Virus record (IMG/VR): IMGVR_UViG_2721755721_000006
Source: a virus
Taxonomy: Duplodnaviria > Heunggongvirae > Uroviricota > Caudoviricetes
DNA length: 16,579 nucleotides
Direction: 5' to 3' (one strand)
Shown: piece after piece, positions 3,455-15,272 of the stretch
Position numbering within the stretch: the first letter of the stretch is position 1
Layout: every line of letters starts with the position of its first letter
The notes under the pieces: generated by a model
The model's database searches: none
The model's input: the letters and a program-made list of their open reading frames with translations, nothing else
Told to the model about the DNA's origin: nothing
Made by a program: the position numbers and the translations under genes

Positions 3455-4333
3455 TCAGACTGCAAGATCCAAGGGAAGATCAGAAATATCCTTTAATCTT
3501 TTACCATTAACCATCACGGAAAGCATGTCAGCTGCATCGCTGAGCCCCAGTATTTCAACTGCTGATATAAGTTCATAAAGCGCAAAATGATACACGCAAT
3601 CTATATCACCAGTACCAAGAGCAATAGACGCCAGACGACTTGGAGTAGGCTCAGCAGTAACAACCATTACATGAGGGAGATTTCCCTTACGGTTGCGAAT
3701 AAGATTTAATGCCTCAGAACGAGCATTCTGGGCCCGGTCGCTTCTTATTGTCCATTTGCAGGAAATACTTGCGTGTAATATTGGTTTCCCACCATTCGAA
3801 CTCCTGAGAGCTGACATGCGGGTAACAGAATCATCCACCAGTAATTCAGGACTGTTGATAACTTGATCACATTCAGGTTCTCTTTCAACAATAATATCTG
3901 GTGAAATCGTATAATCACTCCCCAGTGCAGCAGCTAGCTGAGGATTACTTTTTGCAGCACTATCCAATGCTATAAGATGGGCATATTGTTCATATTTAGC
4001 TATCTCTAATCTGTTTCTACCAGAAACCTGATGTACATTCCATTTTCCAGGGCGTAAGTGGCTGAGTTTAAAAAAGGTTTTTTCTATAAACTCTGCGCAG
4101 ATACTCTCAAACTGATTACCAGATGTTTGCCCTGCAACACGTTCACCAATCGTTTCAGCCTGCAAGAAGCGAGCAATTTCTCTTGCTATAGCTTTACTGT
4201 TTTTGTTACTGCTATCTGCGTTACTAACAACTCCGGCAGTATTAATTGTGAGCGTATTCAGTAACAATTGGGCATGAAACTCCTTTCTGGCTTCAGCAAA
4301 ACCAACTATGCTGTCAACCAAATCTCCATTCAT
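3455..4333 (-). CDS. Type II restriction endonuclease, Cfr10I/NgoMIV-like PD-(D/E)xK family (292 aa from the ATG at 4333)
   Basis: Immediately downstream of the m5C methyltransferase gene. The sequence TGA-AGGAAATCCAGAA-ATG gives a Shine-Dalgarno 9 nt before the ATG at 4331-4333. The protein has PD (in TISPDIIVERE), then SCK 47 residues later, then E 14 residues after the K. The six-frame ORF extends to 4468 but that part overlaps the M gene 3' end. Confidence 0.72.
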   Translation of the reverse strand: MNGDLVDSIVGFAEARKEFHAQLLLNTLTINTAGVVSNADSSNKNSKAIAREIARFLQAETIGERVAGQTSGNQFESICAEFIEKTFFKLSHLRPGKWNVHQVSGRNRLEIAKYEQYAHLIALDSAAKSNPQLAAALGSDYTISPDIIVEREPECDQVINSPELLVDDSVTRMSALRSSNGGKPILHASISCKWTIRSDRAQNARSEALNLIRNRKGNLPHVMVVTAEPTPSRLASIALGTGDIDCVYHFALYELISAVEILGLSDAADMLSVMVNGKRLKDISDLPLDLAV

Positions 4334-4346
4334 TTCTGGATTTCCT

Positions 4347-5471
4347 TCAGGCTGCTTGACTATTCTTACTGATGTTATTCTTATACCGTCCCTGCAAAAC
4401 TCCATACACATATTGTGCGATTTTTGCCGCAAATAGCGGTGGAACAGCATTCCCGATCTGCTTTGCAATCTCAGTTTTTGAACCGGTAAAAATGAAATTA
4501 TCAGGAAAAGACATTAATCTCGCTGCCTCACGATGAGTTATTGGCCGATCCTCTTCCGGATGTAAATATCGCCCTTTCTCCGGTTTGAAAAACTCAGTAC
4601 GAATCGTTACTGAAGGTCTGTCCCACCACAGACGTCCAAACAAATCGGTCCCTCCAGATTTCTTTTTTAGCCAGCACGCCGGGGTTATATCAGGTCTTTT
4701 TTTCTGTAAATCGAAACGGTTACCTCCTGGTGGAACCGCTTTATATCGCTCCAGAGAAACAGGTGTGGGATTACGCCCAAAATGTAAGTTCAGCGGAGGA
4801 AGTTCATTACGAATATCAGTTCCAACAGGAGCAGGTAAGTCACCAATTGCATCACGCGTACAGACCCATTCAGGCAAAGCGACATCCTTATCAGGGGAAC
4901 GATGCGTTGGTGCTGGCGGGAACGCCGGAATACTATGCACATCGAAGAGTTCTCGTTTGATACCGATTGCTATCGTTCGTTTTCTTGTCTGAGGTACTCC
5001 ATAGTCAGCAGTATTCAACACCATTGGATTAAGCAGAATAAAGCCCATGGATTTCGCTCTAAACGTAATGTCCGCAAACTCATCGCTTATCAGCAATCCG
5101 GGGACATTTTCCATGACGAACATACAAGCCCTTGAACGCTCAATGACATCCATATAAGGCTCCCACAATGCTCTTCGGTGATCACCATAACGATTCTTAT
5201 TCAATAAACTGAATCCCTGACACGGGGGGCCACCTATGACCACATCAGCCTCAGGAACAGTATTGCTGGATGCCCACTCCTCAATATTTGCCTGAACTCC
5301 ATGCAAACCAAAATTGGCATTGTAGGTATTTATAGCTGCAGCATTATTATCAATAGCAAGGATACTTTCAAAGTAGTCAGACATCTCTCCATGAAGAAAA
5401 CCATAAGATAATCCACCTGCCCCACAAAAGAGGTCTATCACTCTGAATTTATTTAATTCTTTCATCCGCAT
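4347..5471 (-). CDS. DNA (cytosine-5)-methyltransferase (374 aa)
   Basis: Canonical m5C methyltransferase motifs in order: FCGAGG (I), GGPPCQGFS (IV, catalytic Cys), ENV (VI), QTRKR (VIII), GNAVPP (X). There is no N-terminal HTH extension. Confidence 0.93.
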   Translation of the reverse strand: MRMKELNKFRVIDLFCGAGGLSYGFLHGEMSDYFESILAIDNNAAAINTYNANFGLHGVQANIEEWASSNTVPEADVVIGGPPCQGFSLLNKNRYGDHRRALWEPYMDVIERSRACMFVMENVPGLLISDEFADITFRAKSMGFILLNPMVLNTADYGVPQTRKRTIAIGIKRELFDVHSIPAFPPAPTHRSPDKDVALPEWVCTRDAIGDLPAPVGTDIRNELPPLNLHFGRNPTPVSLERYKAVPPGGNRFDLQKKRPDITPACWLKKKSGGTDLFGRLWWDRPSVTIRTEFFKPEKGRYLHPEEDRPITHREAARLMSFPDNFIFTGSKTEIAKQIGNAVPPLFAAKIAQYVYGVLQGRYKNNISKNSQAA

Positions 5472-5554
5472 CCATATGCCTCAGATTAATGTTGAGCGTC
5501 TTACAGGACGCGTAATGTTAACTGGGGCTTTCTCTATCTGCCTTTTGGTGTTCA

Positions 5555-5579
5555 TGCCTGAGGCAGACAGCCTCAGGCA
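5555..5579. repeat. Perfect 9-bp inverted repeat (TGCCTGAGG-N7-CCTCAGGCA) between queH-like and the methyltransferase gene
   Basis: Stem 5555-5563 pairs with 5571-5579 around the loop CAGACAG. No U-tract follows on either strand, so it is not a canonical terminator. It sits about 85-100 bp upstream of the M start. Confidence 0.4.
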
Positions 5580-5649
5580 CCCGCAGCAATTCTACTTAAC
5601 TCACGTCACCTCGCCAATATGAAATCAATCAGAAAGGTGATCCATAAAA

Positions 5650-6336
5650 TCACTCCTTCTCTTCTTTTCCGTAGTGGAGTTGGCCAATTTTGATAAGAGG
5701 GCGTCCCTGAGATTTGCGGTGTAGATTGGTATCGCGCAGAGAATACACACAGCCACAATATTCCTGCTGATAGAATTTTTCGCGCTTGCTGATTTCAATC
5801 ATACGGGACGAGCCGCCCTGCTTGCGCCAGTTATAATCCCAGTACACCATACCCGGATAATGCGCAACAGCTCGCCGCCCACACTCGTTAACCTGCTGCA
5901 TATTTTTCCAGCGTGAAATGCCCAGTGAACTACTGATCACACTGAAACCATTTTCAGCAGCGTACAACGCTGTCCGCTCAAAACGCATGTCAAAACACAT
6001 GGTACAACGGATCCCCCTCTCAGGCTCCCATTCCATTCCTTTGGCACGTTCAAACCAGTTGTCGGTGTCGTAATCAGCATCGATAAACGGCACGCCGTGT
6101 TGTTCAGCAAAGCGAATATTTTCATCCTTACGAATTAAATACTCTTTCTGAGGATGAATGTTCGGGTTGTAGAAAAAGATGGTGTAGTCGATTCCCGAGG
6201 CCTGAAGCGCCTCCATCACTTCACCGGAACATGGAGCACAGCAAGAGTGCAGTAGTAGTTTGTTTGCCCCGTTTGGAAGCTCCAATTTAGGCCGTTTGAA
6301 ATCAGCAATAGTCATAAATATTTTTATTGGGGTCAT
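5650..6336 (-). CDS. queH: QueH-like protein (DUF208; putative epoxyqueuosine reductase family)
   Basis: Shows the DUF208/QueH signatures [24 protein letters not shown] and QEYCGCVY. An alternative ATG start at 6315 would shorten the N-terminus. No obvious Shine-Dalgarno at either start. Confidence 0.75.
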
Positions 6337-9460: not shown

Positions 9461-9886
9461 TTAGTGCATCACCACAGCATTCCCTGCCGGGCCGCCGCGA
9501 TTCATCTGGTCATACAAAACAACCGCTGACGCAACAAAATCATCGACATCCTTCACCAGCCGATCCCTCCGTTCGACGATCTCACGGTAATATTCAGAAC
9601 TGTGGCTGCGCATACGGGCCACCAGCAGAGGCGGCATTGCCTTTTCGATCGCCGGTAACAGAGCCTGAATTTTTTCAACAGCATCAGGGGTGTCTTTATC
9701 CAGCCAACGGAAAATTTTCTGTGTATTACGGGCCAGGGCTTCCGGATGGCTGTCGTCGTACAGTTCAGGGAACGTCATCCCCAGTTCGAAATAAGTCCGG
9801 GCTATTTCAGCTGCAGGAACTTTCTCACCATCAGGGTATGCCCAGGCATTCATCGCCATGCGGATGTGCTCATGTTTGATTTTCAT
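9461..9886 (-). CDS. YdaT-like protein (CII-position regulator of Rac/CP-933P-type prophages; 141 aa)
   Basis: Second gene of the rightward-operon analogue, directly after the Cro-like gene (its ATG at 9884-9886 overlaps the upstream stop at 9870). Size matches what I recall for YdaT (~140 aa). Assignment rests on position and size, not a verified alignment. Confidence 0.6.
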   Translation of the reverse strand: MKIKHEHIRMAMNAWAYPDGEKVPAAEIARTYFELGMTFPELYDDSHPEALARNTQKIFRWLDKDTPDAVEKIQALLPAIEKAMPPLLVARMRSHSSEYYREIVERRDRLVKDVDDFVASAVVLYDQMNRGGPAGNAVVMH

Positions 9887-10193
9887 GAATCATTTGCCTC
9901 TTGATGCTTCGGGTATGATCGTTTTCGTCATTTGGTTGCTTCATCGACATATTCTGCGAATAACATGACGAGCGTCGTAAGTATGTCCAATCAACATCAG
10001 GACGAAGTTCTTCACACAGGACACCACCTTTTGTTGCTCGTTCAATCGCAGGACATCTCTCAGCAGGCAACTGACGTACACCTTTGATCCATTGATTTAC
10101 GCTTGGAGGAGATACACCTAAAAGCCTAGCCATTGCTGATTGCCCACCGACAACAGCACAAGCTCGTTTGAATGAATAGTTATCTTTTTTCAT
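9870..10193 (-). CDS. Cro/YdaS-like HTH regulator (107 aa from the ATG at 10193)
   Basis: HTH segment QSAMARLLGVSPPSVNQWIKGVRQLP. GGAG lies 8 nt before the ATG. It is the first gene after the divergent PR-like promoter. The six-frame ORF begins at a GTG at 10214, which coincides with the predicted transcription start. Confidence 0.72.
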   Translation of the reverse strand: MKKDNYSFKRACAVVGGQSAMARLLGVSPPSVNQWIKGVRQLPAERCPAIERATKGGVLCEELRPDVDWTYLRRSSCYSQNMSMKQPNDENDHTRSIKRQMIHENQT

Positions 10194-10220
10194 CGAATGA
10201 ACTCCAAAAAACACGCAACA

Positions 10221-10250
10221 ATATTAGGCTTAGCCTAATACAATTGTCAA
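10221..10250 (-). promoter_or_regulatory. PR-like sigma70 promoter driving the Cro/YdaS-like operon
   Basis: Minus strand reads TTGACA (plus 10245-10250), an 18-nt spacer, then TAATAT (plus 10221-10226). The spacer contains the operator dyad ATTAGGCTAAGCCTAAT. Confidence 0.6.
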
Positions 10251-10288
10251 TAGGCTATGCCTAACACATCGAGAGTAGGGATTGCCTA
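10223..10288. promoter_or_regulatory. Three operator-like dyads (OR analogue) in the divergent intergenic region
   Basis: ATTAGGCTTAGCCTAAT (10223-10239), TAGGCTATGCCTA (10251-10263) and TAGGGATTGCCTA (10276-10288). Centres are about 25 bp apart. Consensus TAGGC-N3-GCCTA. Confidence 0.55.
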
Positions 10289-10317
10289 ACGCGATGCGCA
10301 TAGGAGACTATTAAGCA

Positions 10318-10794
10318 ATGCTTAGTGGTAAAGACTTAGGCCGAGCGATAGAGCAGGCCATTAACAAAAAAATTGCATCAGGAGCCGTCAAATCAAAGGC
10401 GGAAATCGCACGTCATTTCAAAGTCCAACCACCATCAATCCATGACTGGATTAAGAAAGGTTCGATAAGTAAAGACAAACTTCCAGAACTATGGCGTTTC
10501 TTTTCTGATGTGGTTGGTCCAGAGCATTGGGGGCTTAACGAATACCCCATACCAACCCCATCCACTTCAGATACAAAAAGTGAACTTTTAGACATAAACA
10601 GCCTTTATCAAGCCGCCTCTGATGAAAAAAGAGCAATTGTGGCTTTCCTCTTATCTGGAAATGCTACGGAGCCTAGTTGGGTTGATCATGACGTTCGCGC
10701 CTACATTGCCGCAATGGAAATGAAGGTAGCTAACTATCTGAAAAATCAAGAATCAAAACGGAAAAGCCAGAACATCACCAAGACAGGAACTTAA
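10318..10794 (+). CDS. Prophage repressor, RacR-like (158 aa, HTH, no recognisable LexA-type autocleavage domain)
   Basis: Divergent from the Cro-like gene. TAGGAGA lies 10 nt before the ATG at 10318. HTH segment KSKAEIARHFKVQPPSIHDWIKKGS. Flanked on both sides by the same operator dyads. Confidence 0.72.
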   Translation: MLSGKDLGRAIEQAINKKIASGAVKSKAEIARHFKVQPPSIHDWIKKGSISKDKLPELWRFFSDVVGPEHWGLNEYPIPTPSTSDTKSELLDINSLYQAASDEKRAIVAFLLSGNATEPSWVDHDVRAYIAAMEMKVANYLKNQESKRKSQNITKTGT

Positions 10795-10808
10795 ACTTAT
10801 ATGGTCCG

Positions 10809-10830
10809 ACGGGAAATTCCTAGTTCCCGT
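10809..10830 (+). terminator. Weak hairpin downstream of the repressor gene (candidate terminator)
   Basis: ACGGGAA / TTCCCGT stem with an 8-nt loop, 13 bp after the stop. The following sequence TAGTT is only weakly U-rich. Confidence 0.25.
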
Positions 10831-10887
10831 TAGTTAACTCCTACTACCTCTCCCACAAACCATCACCTATTAGGTCGCGCCCAAATT

Positions 10888-10931
10888 ATTAGGCATAGCC
10901 TATTGACAAGTAATTAGGCATTTCCTATAGT
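10888..10931 (+). promoter_or_regulatory. PL-like sigma70 promoter with overlapping operator dyads (OL analogue)
   Basis: TTGACA (10903-10908), a 17-nt spacer, then TATAGT (10926-10931). Operator dyads TAGGCATAGCCTA (10890-10902) and TAGGCATTTCCTA (10915-10927) have the same core as the OR sites. Confidence 0.6.
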
Positions 10932-11116
10932 TTTCCCATACCAACCCATCCCGTCCCACACAATACAGGGCAATACCTCGAGTTACCAGGCAGTGGTCAG
11001 GGGTTAAGTAGCCAGCCCGAGGCGTAAGAACATGACGGCAGGGTTCAACTTTAATAACTATGCAGCAGGTTTTTGTTCCGCTACCCCGGCGTTAAGGGGA
11101 AACAGAGGGTTTCTCA

Positions 11117-11473
11117 GTGGGCGAAGTCAAACATCAGAATGGAAGGCATCCCGGGATCGGCAAAGAAGCAGCAATGGCGCTTTATATTGACATCAGCGCC
11201 ATTGCAGGACAGGTAAGAGTTATCAGAGCGGTAACTAAGCGGTATGCGCCTTTACTTCAGAAAGTCTCTGGTGAGTGCACCGAAGATATTGTCAACGATT
11301 TCGTCATCGAACTGCGAGGACTCATCTTCAGTTACAAGGTGACCACAATTTTTGCAGATGGCTCCCGCGAAACTGTCAGAGCCCTGCGGCTTAAAGGATG
11401 TATCAAAGACTTCGCCACCACATTCTGGGCAAGAAAACTTGATTGTATTCATAACCAATTTCCTCTCGAGTAA
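11117..11473 (+). CDS. Hypothetical early-left ORF (118 aa); mutually exclusive with the minus-strand zinc-ribbon ORF
   Basis: First ORF downstream of the PL-like promoter and co-oriented with it. GTG start preceded by GAGGG at 7 nt. It is in exact codon phase with an antisense ORF, so one of the two is probably a mirror artefact. Confidence 0.3.
   Translation: MGEVKHQNGRHPGIGKEAAMALYIDISAIAGQVRVIRAVTKRYAPLLQKVSGECTEDIVNDFVIELRGLIFSYKVTTIFADGSRETVRALRLKGCIKDFATTFWARKLDCIHNQFPLE
11252..11452 (-). CDS. Small zinc-ribbon protein with an acidic C-terminal tail (66 aa); alternative to the plus-strand ORF
   Basis: ATG at 11450-11452 preceded by GAGAGGAAATTGGTT. Contains CPECGG…(20 aa)…CKNCGH followed by the tail EDESSQFDDEIVDNIF. 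Convergent with PL-like transcription. Confidence 0.35.
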   Translation of the reverse strand: MNTIKFSCPECGGEVFDTSFKPQGSDSFAGAICKNCGHLVTEDESSQFDDEIVDNIFGALTRDFLK

Positions 11474-11544
11474 CAGACCCCTCAGAGGATACCACCTCGC
11501 CTGACGTGGTTAAAAGCAGGCAACGCTAACCACAAGGAGCCGAC

Positions 11545-11763
11545 ATGCAGAAACGAGAACCCGTCATCATCGCGCCAGACTATACCGATGATGAACTTTA
11601 TGAGTGGATGCACCAGAAAATTAATGCAGCGCAGGATCTGAAATGGGCCAATGAAGCCAGGGCTAAGCAGGCTGAAAATCTGTCCGCTCTGGAGCAGGAT
11701 ATCACCAGGCTGGAAAAAGCAGCGGCATTAAGCATTGCCAGAATGATTACATACCCGCGTTAA
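11545..11763 (+). CDS. Small hypothetical early-left protein (72 aa)
   Basis: Consensus Shine-Dalgarno AAGGAG 5 nt before the ATG. Co-oriented with the PL-like promoter. No antisense competitor ORF. Confidence 0.55.
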   Translation: MQKREPVIIAPDYTDDELYEWMHQKINAAQDLKWANEARAKQAENLSALEQDITRLEKAAALSIARMITYPR

Positions 11764-12331
11764 TAGCTAACCAACGAAGCTAAGGTTGGTAATTAAGGAG
11801 TTCTCCACGGGTGAGGTGGAGTGCGTGCGCCGGACACGGGTGAGCATCCGGCACTGACAGTTTACTGAAAGGATATTTCCCTGAAAAGTCAGACCATAAC
11901 GCGAAAGCGCACGGCGAGGTAGCTGGTTCATAGATAGCCTGTCGTTAAATTTTCGTCGACCGTGCGCTTCCGGTTGTGGCAATCCGCGAAATGGCGCGGC
12001 GGTAAGTATGGCGGGGTTATTCCTTCCCCCGTTGAGGACACCGGGTTGTCAGGTTGACCATACGCTTAAGTGACAACCCCGCTGCAACGCCCTCTGTTAT
12101 CAATTTTCTGGTGACGTTTGGCGGTATCAGTTTTACTCCGTGACTGCTCTGCCGCCCTTTTTAAAGTGAATTTTGTGATGCGGTGAATGCGGCTGAGCGC
12201 ACGCGGAACAGTTAAAACCAAAAACAGTGTTATGGGTGGATTCTCTGTATCCGGCGTTAATTGTTAACTGGTTAACGTCACCTGGAGGCACCAGGCACTG
12301 CATCACAAAATTCATTGTTGAGGACGCGATA

Positions 12332-12520
12332 ATGGAAACGTTATTACCAAACGTTAATACGTCTGAAGGTTGTTTTGATATTGGTGTTCTGCTCAGTAAC
12401 CGGGAGTTTACTGAAGATGCCATTAATATGAGGAAATATGAGCCTTATCTGCTCAATGATAATTCCATACTTTCCCGAATTGCTCTTCTTGAACTTGGTA
12501 TTTTCGGAGAACGTCAATGA
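12332..12520 (+). CDS. Small hypothetical protein (62 aa), first gene of a translationally coupled pair
   Basis: ATG at 12332 with AGGA 7 nt upstream. Its stop overlaps the next start in an ATGA at 12517-12520. The six-frame ORF begins further upstream at a GTG at 12227 that has no Shine-Dalgarno. Confidence 0.5.
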   Translation: METLLPNVNTSEGCFDIGVLLSNREFTEDAINMRKYEPYLLNDNSILSRIALLELGIFGERQ

Positions 12521-12705
12521 CTTCAGCATTTGCACTGATGATGACGGTTTTTCTTATAACGGGTGAATCACAGAATGTGATTACCGGAATTTATGCAAGT
12601 AAAGAATCCTGCCTCCAGGCAAGAGACGAGCAAAAAATTTCTGGTGAATGCCTCCCGCTAAAAAAAGTATCGCTGTACCTGAATAACGAAACACCGGCTG
12701 GATAA
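12517..12705 (+). CDS. Small protein with an N-terminal hydrophobic signal/anchor segment (62 aa)
   Basis: GGAGAA 5 nt before the ATG. The N-terminus MTSAFALMMTVFLITG is hydrophobic, and the hydrophilic C-terminal part has two Cys residues. Confidence 0.5.
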   Translation: MTSAFALMMTVFLITGESQNVITGIYASKESCLQARDEQKISGECLPLKKVSLYLNNETPAG

Positions 12706-12800
12706 CCCTCCAGCCATATTAACACCATACCAACGGATTAAAAATGCCAGCAATGGCAGGGATTCGTTCACCCTGAAATCTGTCATGAGGTTAAAACAAA

Positions 12801-15272
12801 ATGAGTAAAGTCTTTATTTGCGCCGCCATTCCTGACGAACTGGCAACAAGGGAAGAAGGCGCTGTGGCTGTAGCCACAGCTATTGAAGCTGGCGACGAAC
12901 GCCGTGCTCGAGCAAAATTTCACTGGCAATTCCTGGAACATTATCCGGCTGCTCAGGACTGCGCTTATAAATTTATTATCTGCGAGGATAAACCTGGCAT
13001 ACCCCGCCCTGCCCTCGATTCATGGGATGCTGAATATATGCAGGAAAACCGCTGGGATGAGGATTCTGCTTCTTTTGTCCCGGTTGAGACTGAATCCGAT
13101 CTGATGAACGTCACTTTTGACAAGCTGGCCCCTGAAGTACAGAACGCTCTCATGGTTAAGTTCGACACATGTGAAAACATCACCGTTGATATGGTTATTA
13201 GCGCACAGGAATTGTTGCAGGAAGACATGGCAACATTCAACGGACATATCGTTGAAGCGTTGATGAAAATGCCAGAAGTTAACGCCATGTATCCGGAGCT
13301 TAAGCTGCATGCCATCGGGTGGGTTAAGCATAAATGTAAGCCTGGTGCCAAATGGCCCGAAATTCAGGCAGAGATGCGCATCTGGAAAAAACGTCGCGAA
13401 GGTGAACGCAAGGAAACCGGAAAATACACGTCTGTTGTTGATCTCGCCCGCGCCAGAGTCAATCAACAGCACACTGAAAATTCAACAGGAAAAATCAGCC
13501 CGGTCATTGCTGCCATTCATCGCGAATACAAGCAGACATGGAAAACACTGGATGACGAACTGGCCTACGCTCTCTGGCCTGGTGATGTGGATGCCGGAAA
13601 CATTGACGGCAGCATCCATCGCTGGGCAAAAAATGAAGTTATCGACAACGACCGCGAAGACTGGAAGCGTATCTCGGCATCAATGCGCAAACAGCCTGAT
13701 GCCCTTCGCTACGACCGCCAGACTATTTTTGGCCTTGTCCGTGAACGTCCGATCGACATTCACAAAGACCCTGTGGCACTGAACAAATACATTACTGAAT
13801 ACCTGACTACAAAGGGCGTGTTTGAAGATGAAGGAACAAATCAGAGCGCAACTGATACTCTCTCGTCGTCAGTACCAGAAACTGATGCAGTGGAAACGGC
13901 AATTCCGGACAACGAAAAAACCGAATGCAAAGTGGAAGTCGAACCATCTGTAGAGCGTGAGGGGCCGTTCTACTTCCTCTTCACCGACAAGGATGGCGAA
14001 AAATACGGTCGCGCAAACAAACTTTCTGGTCTGGATAAGGCACTGGCTGCCGGGGCTACTGAAATCACGAAAGAAGAATATTTCGCCCGCAAAAACAGTA
14101 CATACTCAGGTTCACAACAAAATACTGGTGCATCTGACACGACCGCACAACCAGGGCCGGTAAAAGTTACCGCTGACGAAGTAAACAAAATTATGCAGGC
14201 AGCCAATATCAGCCAGCCTGACGCCGATAAGTTGCTTGCTGCCTCTCGCGGAGAATTTGTTGCAGGGATTAGCGACCCGAATGATCCGAAATGGGTTAAG
14301 GGGATCCAGACCCGCGATTCTGTAAACCAGAACCAGCATGAATCGGAACGGAACTACCAAAAAGCGGAACAAAACAGCCCAAATGCGTTACAAAACGAGC
14401 CAGAAACGAAACAGCCTGAACCAGTGGCGCAACAGGAAGTGGAAAAAGTCTGCACCGCCTGCGGTCAGACCGGCGGCGGCAACTGCCCTGATTGTGGCGC
14501 AGTGATGGGCGACGCAACATACCAGGAAACATTCGATGAAGAGTATCAGGTTGAAGTTCAGGAAGATGATCCGGAGAAAATGGAAGGCGCTGAACATCCA
14601 CACAAGGAGAACACTGGCGGCAATCAGCATCACGATAGCGATAATGAAACTGGCGAGACGGCAGATCACTCAATTAAGGTGAACGGTCATCAAGAAATCA
14701 CATCCACCAGCAGGACGTGTGACCATCTAATGATCGACCTTGAAACCATGGGAAAAAATCCTGATGCCCCGATCATCTCAATAGGTGCAATATTTTTCGA
14801 TCCGCAAACCGGAGATATGGGACCGGAATTTAGTAAGACTATTGATCTGGAAACTGCTGGCGGAGTCATTGATCGGGACACCATTAAATGGTGGCTTAAG
14901 CAATCACGCGAAGCGCAATCTGCCATTATGACCGATGAAATCCCGTTAGATGATGCACTGTTACAATTGCGGGAATTTATCGACGAAAACTCCGGTGAAT
15001 TTTTTGTTCAGGTCTGGGGTAACGGTGCAACTTTCGACAACGTGATTTTACGCCGTTCATATGAACGGCAGGGGATCCCCTGCCCGTGGCGTTACACCAA
15101 TGATCGCGATGTAAGAACGATGGTTGCTCTGGGACTGGTGATGGATTTCGACGCAAGAACGACTATTCCATTCGAAGGTGAACGCCATAACGCTCTGAAC
15201 GATGCACGTTACCAGGCGAAATACGTTTCAGCCATCTGGCAAAAACTGCTCCCGAGTCAGGCTGATTTTTAA
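12801..15272 (+). CDS. Large prophage exonuclease (823 aa): N-terminal region of unknown function, acidic low-complexity linker with an internal zinc ribbon, C-terminal DnaQ-like DEDDh 3'-5' exonuclease domain
   Basis: The C-terminal ~185 aa carry Exo I (LMIDLETMG), Exo II ([13 protein letters not shown]) and Exo III ([14 protein letters not shown]-x4-D) motifs. [17 protein letters not shown] zinc ribbon lies around 14447-14500. The gene sits where RecE sits in Rac-type prophages. Confidence 0.85.

Follow-up and report, generated by a model that had tools for sequence, protein, structure and literature searches.

The two overlapping reading frames at positions 12332-12520 and 12517-12705 (+ strand) of the window, that is, of the whole stretch of 16,579 nucleotides analyzed, are very probably dicB and a homologue of ydfD. 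These are the last two small genes of a dicBF operon (ydfC, DicF, dicB, ydfD), and the mechanism of the pair would follow by homology from that of its counterpart in K-12. The finding is real and already known, the pair being a divergent but catalogued allele whose exact proteins are in RefSeq: complete E. coli genomes contain a 99.8%-identical match to positions 12200-12800, in which the first protein is labeled dicB (WP_000449175.1) and the second DUF1482 family protein (WP_000199473.1). The view of the preliminary description that neither protein resembles a known family is therefore corrected by the identification of DicB and DUF1482.

Work on the dicBF operon dates back to the 1980s, and thousands of genomes carry its annotation, so that the re-identification of its dicB-ydfD end has little weight as a discovery. 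Still of use is the observation that the allele found here, which is widespread and of the EHEC type, is markedly different from the K-12 proteins behind all functional work, with 63% identity for DicB, 44% identity for YdfD, and a charge-reversed C terminus in DicB. Given this divergence, the conclusions on MinC/ZipA and on IspG should not be carried over from K-12 without testing.

Coordinates and translation signals of the gene pair

Both reading frames lie on the + strand and contain 62 codons. The first (12332-12520) encodes the protein METLLPNVNTSEGCFDIGVLLSNREFTEDAINMRKYEPYLLNDNSILSRIALLELGIFGERQ, which opens with METLLPNVNTSEGCF, and the second (12517-12705) encodes MTSAFALMMTVFLITGESQNVITGIYASKESCLQARDEQKISGECLPLKKVSLYLNNETPAG, which opens with MTSAFALMMTVFLITGES. 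They overlap in an ATGA (12517-12520, +) that contains the stop codon of dicB and the start codon of ydfD. The Shine-Dalgarno sequence of dicB is GAGGA (12320-12324, +) and that of ydfD is GGAG (12506-12509, +), the latter located in the final codons of dicB, and each is found 7 nt 5' of its ATG. The coordinates, translations, overlap, and good Shine-Dalgarno sequences reported in the preliminary description were thus reproduced exactly. Judged from this arrangement of letters, dicB and ydfD are translationally coupled through the ATGA overlap.

The list of open reading frames also holds a longer frame that begins with GTG (12227-12520, 97 codons) and contains dicB in phase. The 62-aa product of dicB arises from the internal in-phase ATG start, which bears the Shine-Dalgarno sequence. 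Two minus-strand frames, at 12344-12535 and 12591-12728, were rejected as genes, given that they run antisense to two conserved coding genes under selection.

Both proteins belong to curated families

The first protein matches the Pfam DicB family (PF05358) over the full length of the model, with 125.5 bits (cutoff 27; E 6.4e-37; positions 1-62 of 62), and the NCBIfam DicB model NF049927 with 114.2 bits (cutoff 100). Comparison with K-12 DicB by BLASTP gave 63% identity from end to end, and a sequence search of the PDB returned no match. The gene also occupies the place of dicB, 3' of DicF in a dicBF-type operon; ydfC is upstream, and genes for a repressor, an exonuclease, and an integrase mark the surroundings as a lambdoid prophage.

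DicB of the K-12 Qin prophage (b1575, PF05358) has the same length of 62 aa, and its N-terminal 18 residues and FTEDAIN motif are nearly identical to those found here. The C-terminal segment keeps its hydrophobic pattern (L40, L41, I46, S48, A51, and L53), and in both cases the gene is located downstream of DicF, has an internal in-phase start, and overlaps ydfD by 4 nt. In contrast, residues 19 to 62 are strongly divergent. Polar positions change charge and the net charge flips, being -5.5 in the present protein, with a predicted pI of 4.4 versus 9.0 in K-12. By homology with K-12 DicB, the present allele should cause MinC/ZipA-dependent inhibition of division.

The second protein matches Pfam DUF1482 (PF07358) over the entire profile (positions 1-57 of 57) with 54 bits, above the gathering score of the family (cutoff 25; E 1.5e-14), and PHROG 1092 with an E value of 2e-33. 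It carries the signature of the family, namely, a hydrophobic N terminus ending in Gly, two conserved Cys, and an E-Q motif, and its gene is located directly 3' of dicB with a 4-nt overlap. BLASTP against K-12 YdfD gave 44% identity over the full 62 aa (E 7e-20), whereas no NCBIfam model and, by sequence search, no PDB entry was matched. YdfD of K-12 Qin (b1576, "lysis protein"; PF07358 also includes YebW) is of similar length (62 versus 63 aa) and shares the hydrophobic N terminus ending in G16-E17, the two invariant cysteines, the EQK motif, the C-terminal PAG, and the position and overlap with dicB. It differs in that the two proteins are only 44% identical and in that the protein here is less acidic (net charge of -1.5 versus -4.3 in K-12). 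The lysis activity and the binding of IspG should hold for the present allele by homology with K-12 YdfD.

An alignment of 15 diverse members of the YdfD family showed that L7, G16, C32, C45, and P47 are invariant and that A6, T10, V11, G24, E38, and Q39 are at least 90% conserved. The two cysteines pointed out in the preliminary description, C32 and C45, are therefore invariant across the family. The family is small: when 1.84 billion representatives were scanned exhaustively with HMMER, 30 relatives reached E <= 1e-3, the relatives returned by a word-indexed search were all at least 68% identical, and a search of genome contigs with the single YdfD protein returned one locus, from E. albertii. 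A 1031-aa metagenomic repeat protein (P0108; E 2.7e-8 versus YdfD) was discarded, as its similarity consists of six short matches to a "AGIFSSEEGCLNG" repeat and is probably a compositional or repeat artifact.

Operon and prophage context

The Rfam model of DicF (RF00039), the small RNA that is antisense to ftsZ mRNA, matches positions 12106-12157 (+) over its full length (1-52) with 76.7 bits (gathering score 48; E 9e-16). The sequence is 100% identical to K-12 dicF and sits in a long untranslated region. This match shows that the "structured non-coding region" of the preliminary description is the ydfC-dicF-dicB untranslated region, and the location of the pair between this region and the exonuclease gene (12801-15272, +) is borne out. 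The upstream gene of the operon, ydfC (11545-11763, +), has 97.7% DNA identity to K-12 ydfC, and the homologous position is annotated ydfC. The presence of DicB, a DUF1482 protein, and DicF identifies the locus as the distal part of a dicBF operon of a lambdoid prophage.

Across the stop codon of ydfD, a hairpin of 7 bp (12696-12716, +; GGCUGGA-UAACCC-UCCAGCC) was found, with a fold z-score of -2.5 for positions 12670-12800. Relatives with the same allele keep its inner 6 pairs, the K-12 allele lacks it, and on the + strand there is no U-tract behind it. The hairpin may be an RNA 3'-end or stability element. In K-12, transcripts end past ydfD (PMC10448788).

The exonuclease gene encodes a protein of 823 aa and is intact, whereas its K-12 counterpart, ydfE, is a pseudogene. 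The C terminus of the protein is an Rv2179c-like 3'-5' exonuclease domain (Pfam PF16473, E 1.4e-65), and the middle matches the NCBIfam exodeoxyribonuclease VIII (RecE) only partially. Downstream of the gene come a DUF4224 excisionase-like gene and then an integrase gene (Phage_integrase match), and no RecT-like gene. The order of repressor, ydfC, DicF, dicB, the 62/63-aa frame, exonuclease, excisionase, and integrase is common to K-12 Qin and the closest overall relative of the window, and it recurs in EHEC-type prophages, in the PPompW prophages that Stx-producing strains carry, and in the isolated phage mEp460. This shared gene order indicates that the window is the early-left arm of a lambdoid prophage.

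The immunity region differs from that of the K-12 Qin operon. The position of dicA is occupied by a RacR-type repressor gene (10318-10794, +), which matches NCBIfam NF049929 (TransRepsrRacR) with 246.8 bits (cutoff 200), and divergent from it are a YdaS-like gene (9870-10214, -) and a YdaT-like gene (9461-9886, -). A Rac-type immunity region (9461-10794) upstream of a Qin-type dicF-dicB-ydfD block is, as read from these genes, a Rac/Qin hybrid arrangement, and the operon would then be controlled by RacR and not by DicA/Rem. A candidate promoter for the operon, proposed from its consensus match (TTGACA-17-TATAGT, 11/12 matches), is located at 10903-10931 (+). Given that a scan for promoter and terminator consensus sequences found a number of sites in the region not above the shuffled expectation, this promoter is a lead only.

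The K-12 genes ydfA and ydfB are also absent from the present operon, and positions 10795-11544 contain other sequence instead. In their place is a 118-aa frame (11117-11473, +) that is annotated as hypothetical in PPompW phages, and opposite to it is a 68-aa frame with two CxxC motifs (11252-11458, -). None of the + strand frames scanned between 10795 and 11544 has a Pfam match.

Conservation of the pair and selection

The same cassette type is present in 1019 of 5426 complete E. coli genomes (about 19%), counted by megablast with positions 12200-12800 as the query and a query coverage of at least 80%. The conservation of the pair was followed in 163 loci from scans of viral contigs, in which the 80 closest loci per scan were taken, a sample suited to the conservation of the pair within this allele and poor in other cassette types. 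Anchored on DicB, the sample contains 42 unique DNA versions, of which 35 have both genes intact. Anchored on YdfD, an intact 62-aa DicB located directly upstream and ending in the 4-nt overlap was found in all 43 unique cassettes. The K-12 pair has the same 4-nt overlap. The conservation in related prophages that the preliminary description named as a check is thus observed.

The overlap is ATGA in 21 of the 42 unique cassettes, GTGA in 19, and ATAA in 2, where ATA replaces ATG/GTG and the start of ydfD is lost. Together with these two start losses, four frameshifts in an A-tract and one early stop disrupt ydfD in 7 of the 42, and in each case ydfD alone is hit; dicB is disrupted in none of the 43. 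Disrupting mutations in close relatives, which would have spoken against the pair according to the preliminary description, are therefore present for ydfD and absent for dicB. The frameshift hotspot is an A7 homopolymer in ydfD (12660-12666, +), whose A6 and A8 variants in the relatives (4/42) give products of 54 and 56 aa. Sequencing error at this homopolymer may be the source of these variants. In this sample the lysis gene is occasionally lost and the division inhibitor is not, and the disruption of ydfD suggests that some hosts can do without the function of YdfD or select against it.

Purifying selection acts on both genes. Within the allele group, pN/pS is 0.19 for dicB and 0.27 for ydfD (Nei-Gojobori method, 496 sequence pairs), and versus the K-12 allele dN/dS is ∼0.34 for dicB codons 19 to 61 and ∼0.38 for ydfD, with dS near saturation. 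The conservation of the pair and the pN/pS values identify the two frames as real coding genes under constraint, and with the curated Pfam matches and the occurrence of the pair in all 43 unique cassettes, both are far beyond chance.

A swapped cassette with a breakpoint inside dicB

Comparison of the window with K-12 Qin revealed 96 to 100% identity from ydfC through DicF, the leader, and dicB codons 1 to 18 (to position 12385). The identity falls to 55 to 58% between 12386 and 12705 and to 37% in the next 40 nt, and it is back to more than 92% from 12746 on. The boundaries of this mosaic are sharp, with the left breakpoint within dicB, at codon 18/19, and the divergent allelic cassette (12386-12745, +) comprises dicB codons 19 to 62, the whole of ydfD, and 40 nt of 3' flank. 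L003, the closest relative overall, matches 77% of the window at 98.8% identity and has exactly the same boundaries with a K-12-like cassette in place. Its identity to the present sequence is 55 to 58% inside these boundaries, versus 96 to 100% upstream and 92% or more downstream. These identical boundaries indicate that the exchangeable unit consists of the C-terminal two-thirds of DicB plus YdfD.

Since the whole unit is only ∼360 bp long, simple linkage explains the co-inheritance of the DicB C terminus and YdfD. It is quite improbable that the two form allele-specific functional pairs, either through direct interaction or through an allele-specific host target other than the MinC/ZipA and IspG of K-12. 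If such pairing were true, the charge-reversed C terminus of DicB would mark a different specificity class of division-inhibitor/lysis module.

Proposed mechanism

In K-12, the operon is expressed as a polycistronic RNA from a repressor-controlled promoter, RNase III and RNase E free DicF from it, and the longest species is a 1,608-nt ydfABC-dicFB-ydfD RNA (PMC10448788). K-12 DicB binds MinC and, by septal targeting via ZipA, Z-rings are dismantled and division is blocked; through a MinC-dependent block of ManYZ, the cells also resist λ and further phages that need ManYZ (PMC6832061). DicB alone is toxic as well (PMC5069750), and ydfD is toxic and kept silent (PMC9782134; PMC11430063). According to PMC8835842, which cites Masuda 2016, K-12 YdfD alone causes rapid lysis, and co-expression of DicB or SulA prevents it. 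This lysis depends on division, YdfD binds IspG with a Kd of 18 µM, overexpression of ispG or HMBPP rescues the cells, and trimming a few terminal residues weakens YdfD (PMC8835842). The IspG mechanism goes back to one study, in which the affinity was moderate and no enzyme assay was included (PMC8835842).

By homology, relief of the prophage repressor would give one polycistronic transcript from which RNase III and RNase E would free DicF, and dicB and ydfD would be translated as a coupled pair. DicB would bind MinC and recruit it to the septum through ZipA, so that FtsZ rings would be dismantled and division blocked, with the side effect that ManYZ would be inactivated and ManYZ-dependent phages excluded. 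YdfD would be a small soluble α/β protein that lyses dividing cells, reportedly by binding IspG, which would lead to starvation for isoprenoid (undecaprenyl-phosphate) precursors. Because lysis needs division, the co-translated DicB would hold YdfD in check, and its division block would restrain lysis until division resumes or the stoichiometry shifts. For the present alleles, we infer every one of these biochemical activities by homology with the characterized proteins, to which they are 63% and 44% identical.

Such a pair has counterparts in other phages and prophages. Like the Kil-type inhibitors (lambda Kil and Rac KilR), DicB is a small early-region prophage protein that blocks FtsZ-dependent division, although its effect on FtsZ is indirect, by way of MinC. 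Like the single-gene lysis proteins (phiX174 E, Qβ A2, and LysM), YdfD is a small protein that would cause lysis through an inhibited cell-wall precursor pathway, although its reported target, IspG, is upstream of the lipid carrier and not at the Mur, MraY, or MurJ steps. No sequence relationship of DicB or YdfD to the Kil-type inhibitors or to the single-gene lysis proteins was detected.

Alternative readings of the pair

The N terminus of YdfD, with a run of 16 residues that contains no charged residue, was taken in the preliminary description for a membrane or signal segment. YdfD might accordingly be inserted in the membrane or exported and have its site of action in the envelope, as holins and signal-anchored proteins do, instead of inhibiting a cytoplasmic enzyme, which we regard as unlikely. 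The best 19-residue Kyte-Doolittle window, which reaches 2.0 in K-12 YdfD, is 1.31 in the present allele, and there is no Lys or Arg (basic n-region) ahead of the hydrophobic run. In divergent relatives, G, S, H, Q, or N occurs within the stretch, and only ∼8 hydrophobic residues remain. Structure prediction, which the preliminary description had suggested as a check, gave with AlphaFold2 (from the 15-sequence alignment) a compact ββαβα fold with strands at residues 5-12, 18-26, and 43-47 and helices at residues 29-39 and 48-56. The mean pLDDT is 79 and the values are 81 to 91 across residues 1 to 40, where the hairpin formed by the first two strands is packed on a helix. By hydropathy, alignment, and predicted structure, YdfD is expected to have neither a transmembrane helix of at least 18 to 20 residues nor a Sec signal peptide (basic n-region, h-region, and AxA-type cleavage site). 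The model and the family alignment argue that the hydrophobic N terminus is a core β-strand in a β-hairpin and not a membrane anchor, which fits a cytoplasmic target. A periplasmic disulfide between the two invariant cysteines is conceivable, and the literature name "lysis protein" becomes "membrane lysis protein" for some authors (PMC9782134). In K-12, however, YdfD forms a soluble complex with IspG, which is cytoplasmic; the N-terminal part of YdfD mediates the binding, and cysteine mutants still bind (PMC8835842).

The joint exchange of the DicB C terminus and YdfD could also be expected of a cognate toxin/antitoxin-like (kil/anti-kil) module, in which the C-terminal two-thirds of DicB directly neutralizes its own YdfD. 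The recombination boundary inside dicB at codon 18/19, through which the two are co-inherited, the 4-nt overlap that enforces co-translation, and the prevention of YdfD lysis by DicB agree with such a module. It is nevertheless very improbable, because two genes totaling ∼370 bp are co-inherited by simple linkage and because, according to PMC8835842, SulA, which is unrelated to DicB, prevents YdfD lysis too. A division block is then sufficient, and the protection by DicB would be indirect. The toxicity of DicB itself (PMC5069750) and the net charges of the two proteins (DicB -5.5 and YdfD -1.5), which are not complementary, also speak against it. The pair resembles type II/IV toxin-antitoxin pairs in being an overlapping two-gene operon for small proteins, one of which cancels the lethality of the other. 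It departs from them in that both products are toxic, SulA substitutes for DicB, and neither protein matches toxin-antitoxin or defense families in Pfam, NCBIfam, or PADLOC. With a DicB that is toxic instead of a nontoxic antitoxin, a protection that would be indirect instead of a direct neutralization, and no match to toxin-antitoxin domains in these databases, a classical toxin-antitoxin system was rejected. Of the functions proposed in the preliminary description, the kil/anti-kil and superinfection-exclusion ideas were roughly right, in that DicB is a kil-type inhibitor that excludes ManYZ-dependent phages (PMC6832061) and its co-expression suppresses YdfD lysis (PMC8835842); the toxin-antitoxin-like idea was not borne out in the classical sense. 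That one or both frames are decaying relics without present function in a cryptic prophage is hardly credible: K-12 Qin is defective and its operon normally repressed (PMC10448788), and ydfD is disrupted in some related cassettes, as described above, but here both frames are intact, with good Shine-Dalgarno sequences and purifying selection, dicB is never disrupted in the sample, and the pair persists as this allele in ∼19% of the complete E. coli genomes, as well as in phages that are inducible or have been isolated.

Other features of the window

Far upstream of the operon, the Rfam model of the sok antitoxin RNA matches positions 5402-5582 (-) with 61 bits (gathering score 59), and no intact Hok frame was found in its vicinity. 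The match is flanked by genes for a C5 DNA methyltransferase (4347-5471, -) and an NgoMIV-like restriction endonuclease (3455-4468, -), with a QueH-like gene (5650-6336, -) on the other side. Taken together, these features appear to represent a hok/sok remnant adjacent to a type II restriction-modification system that was inserted into the prophage.
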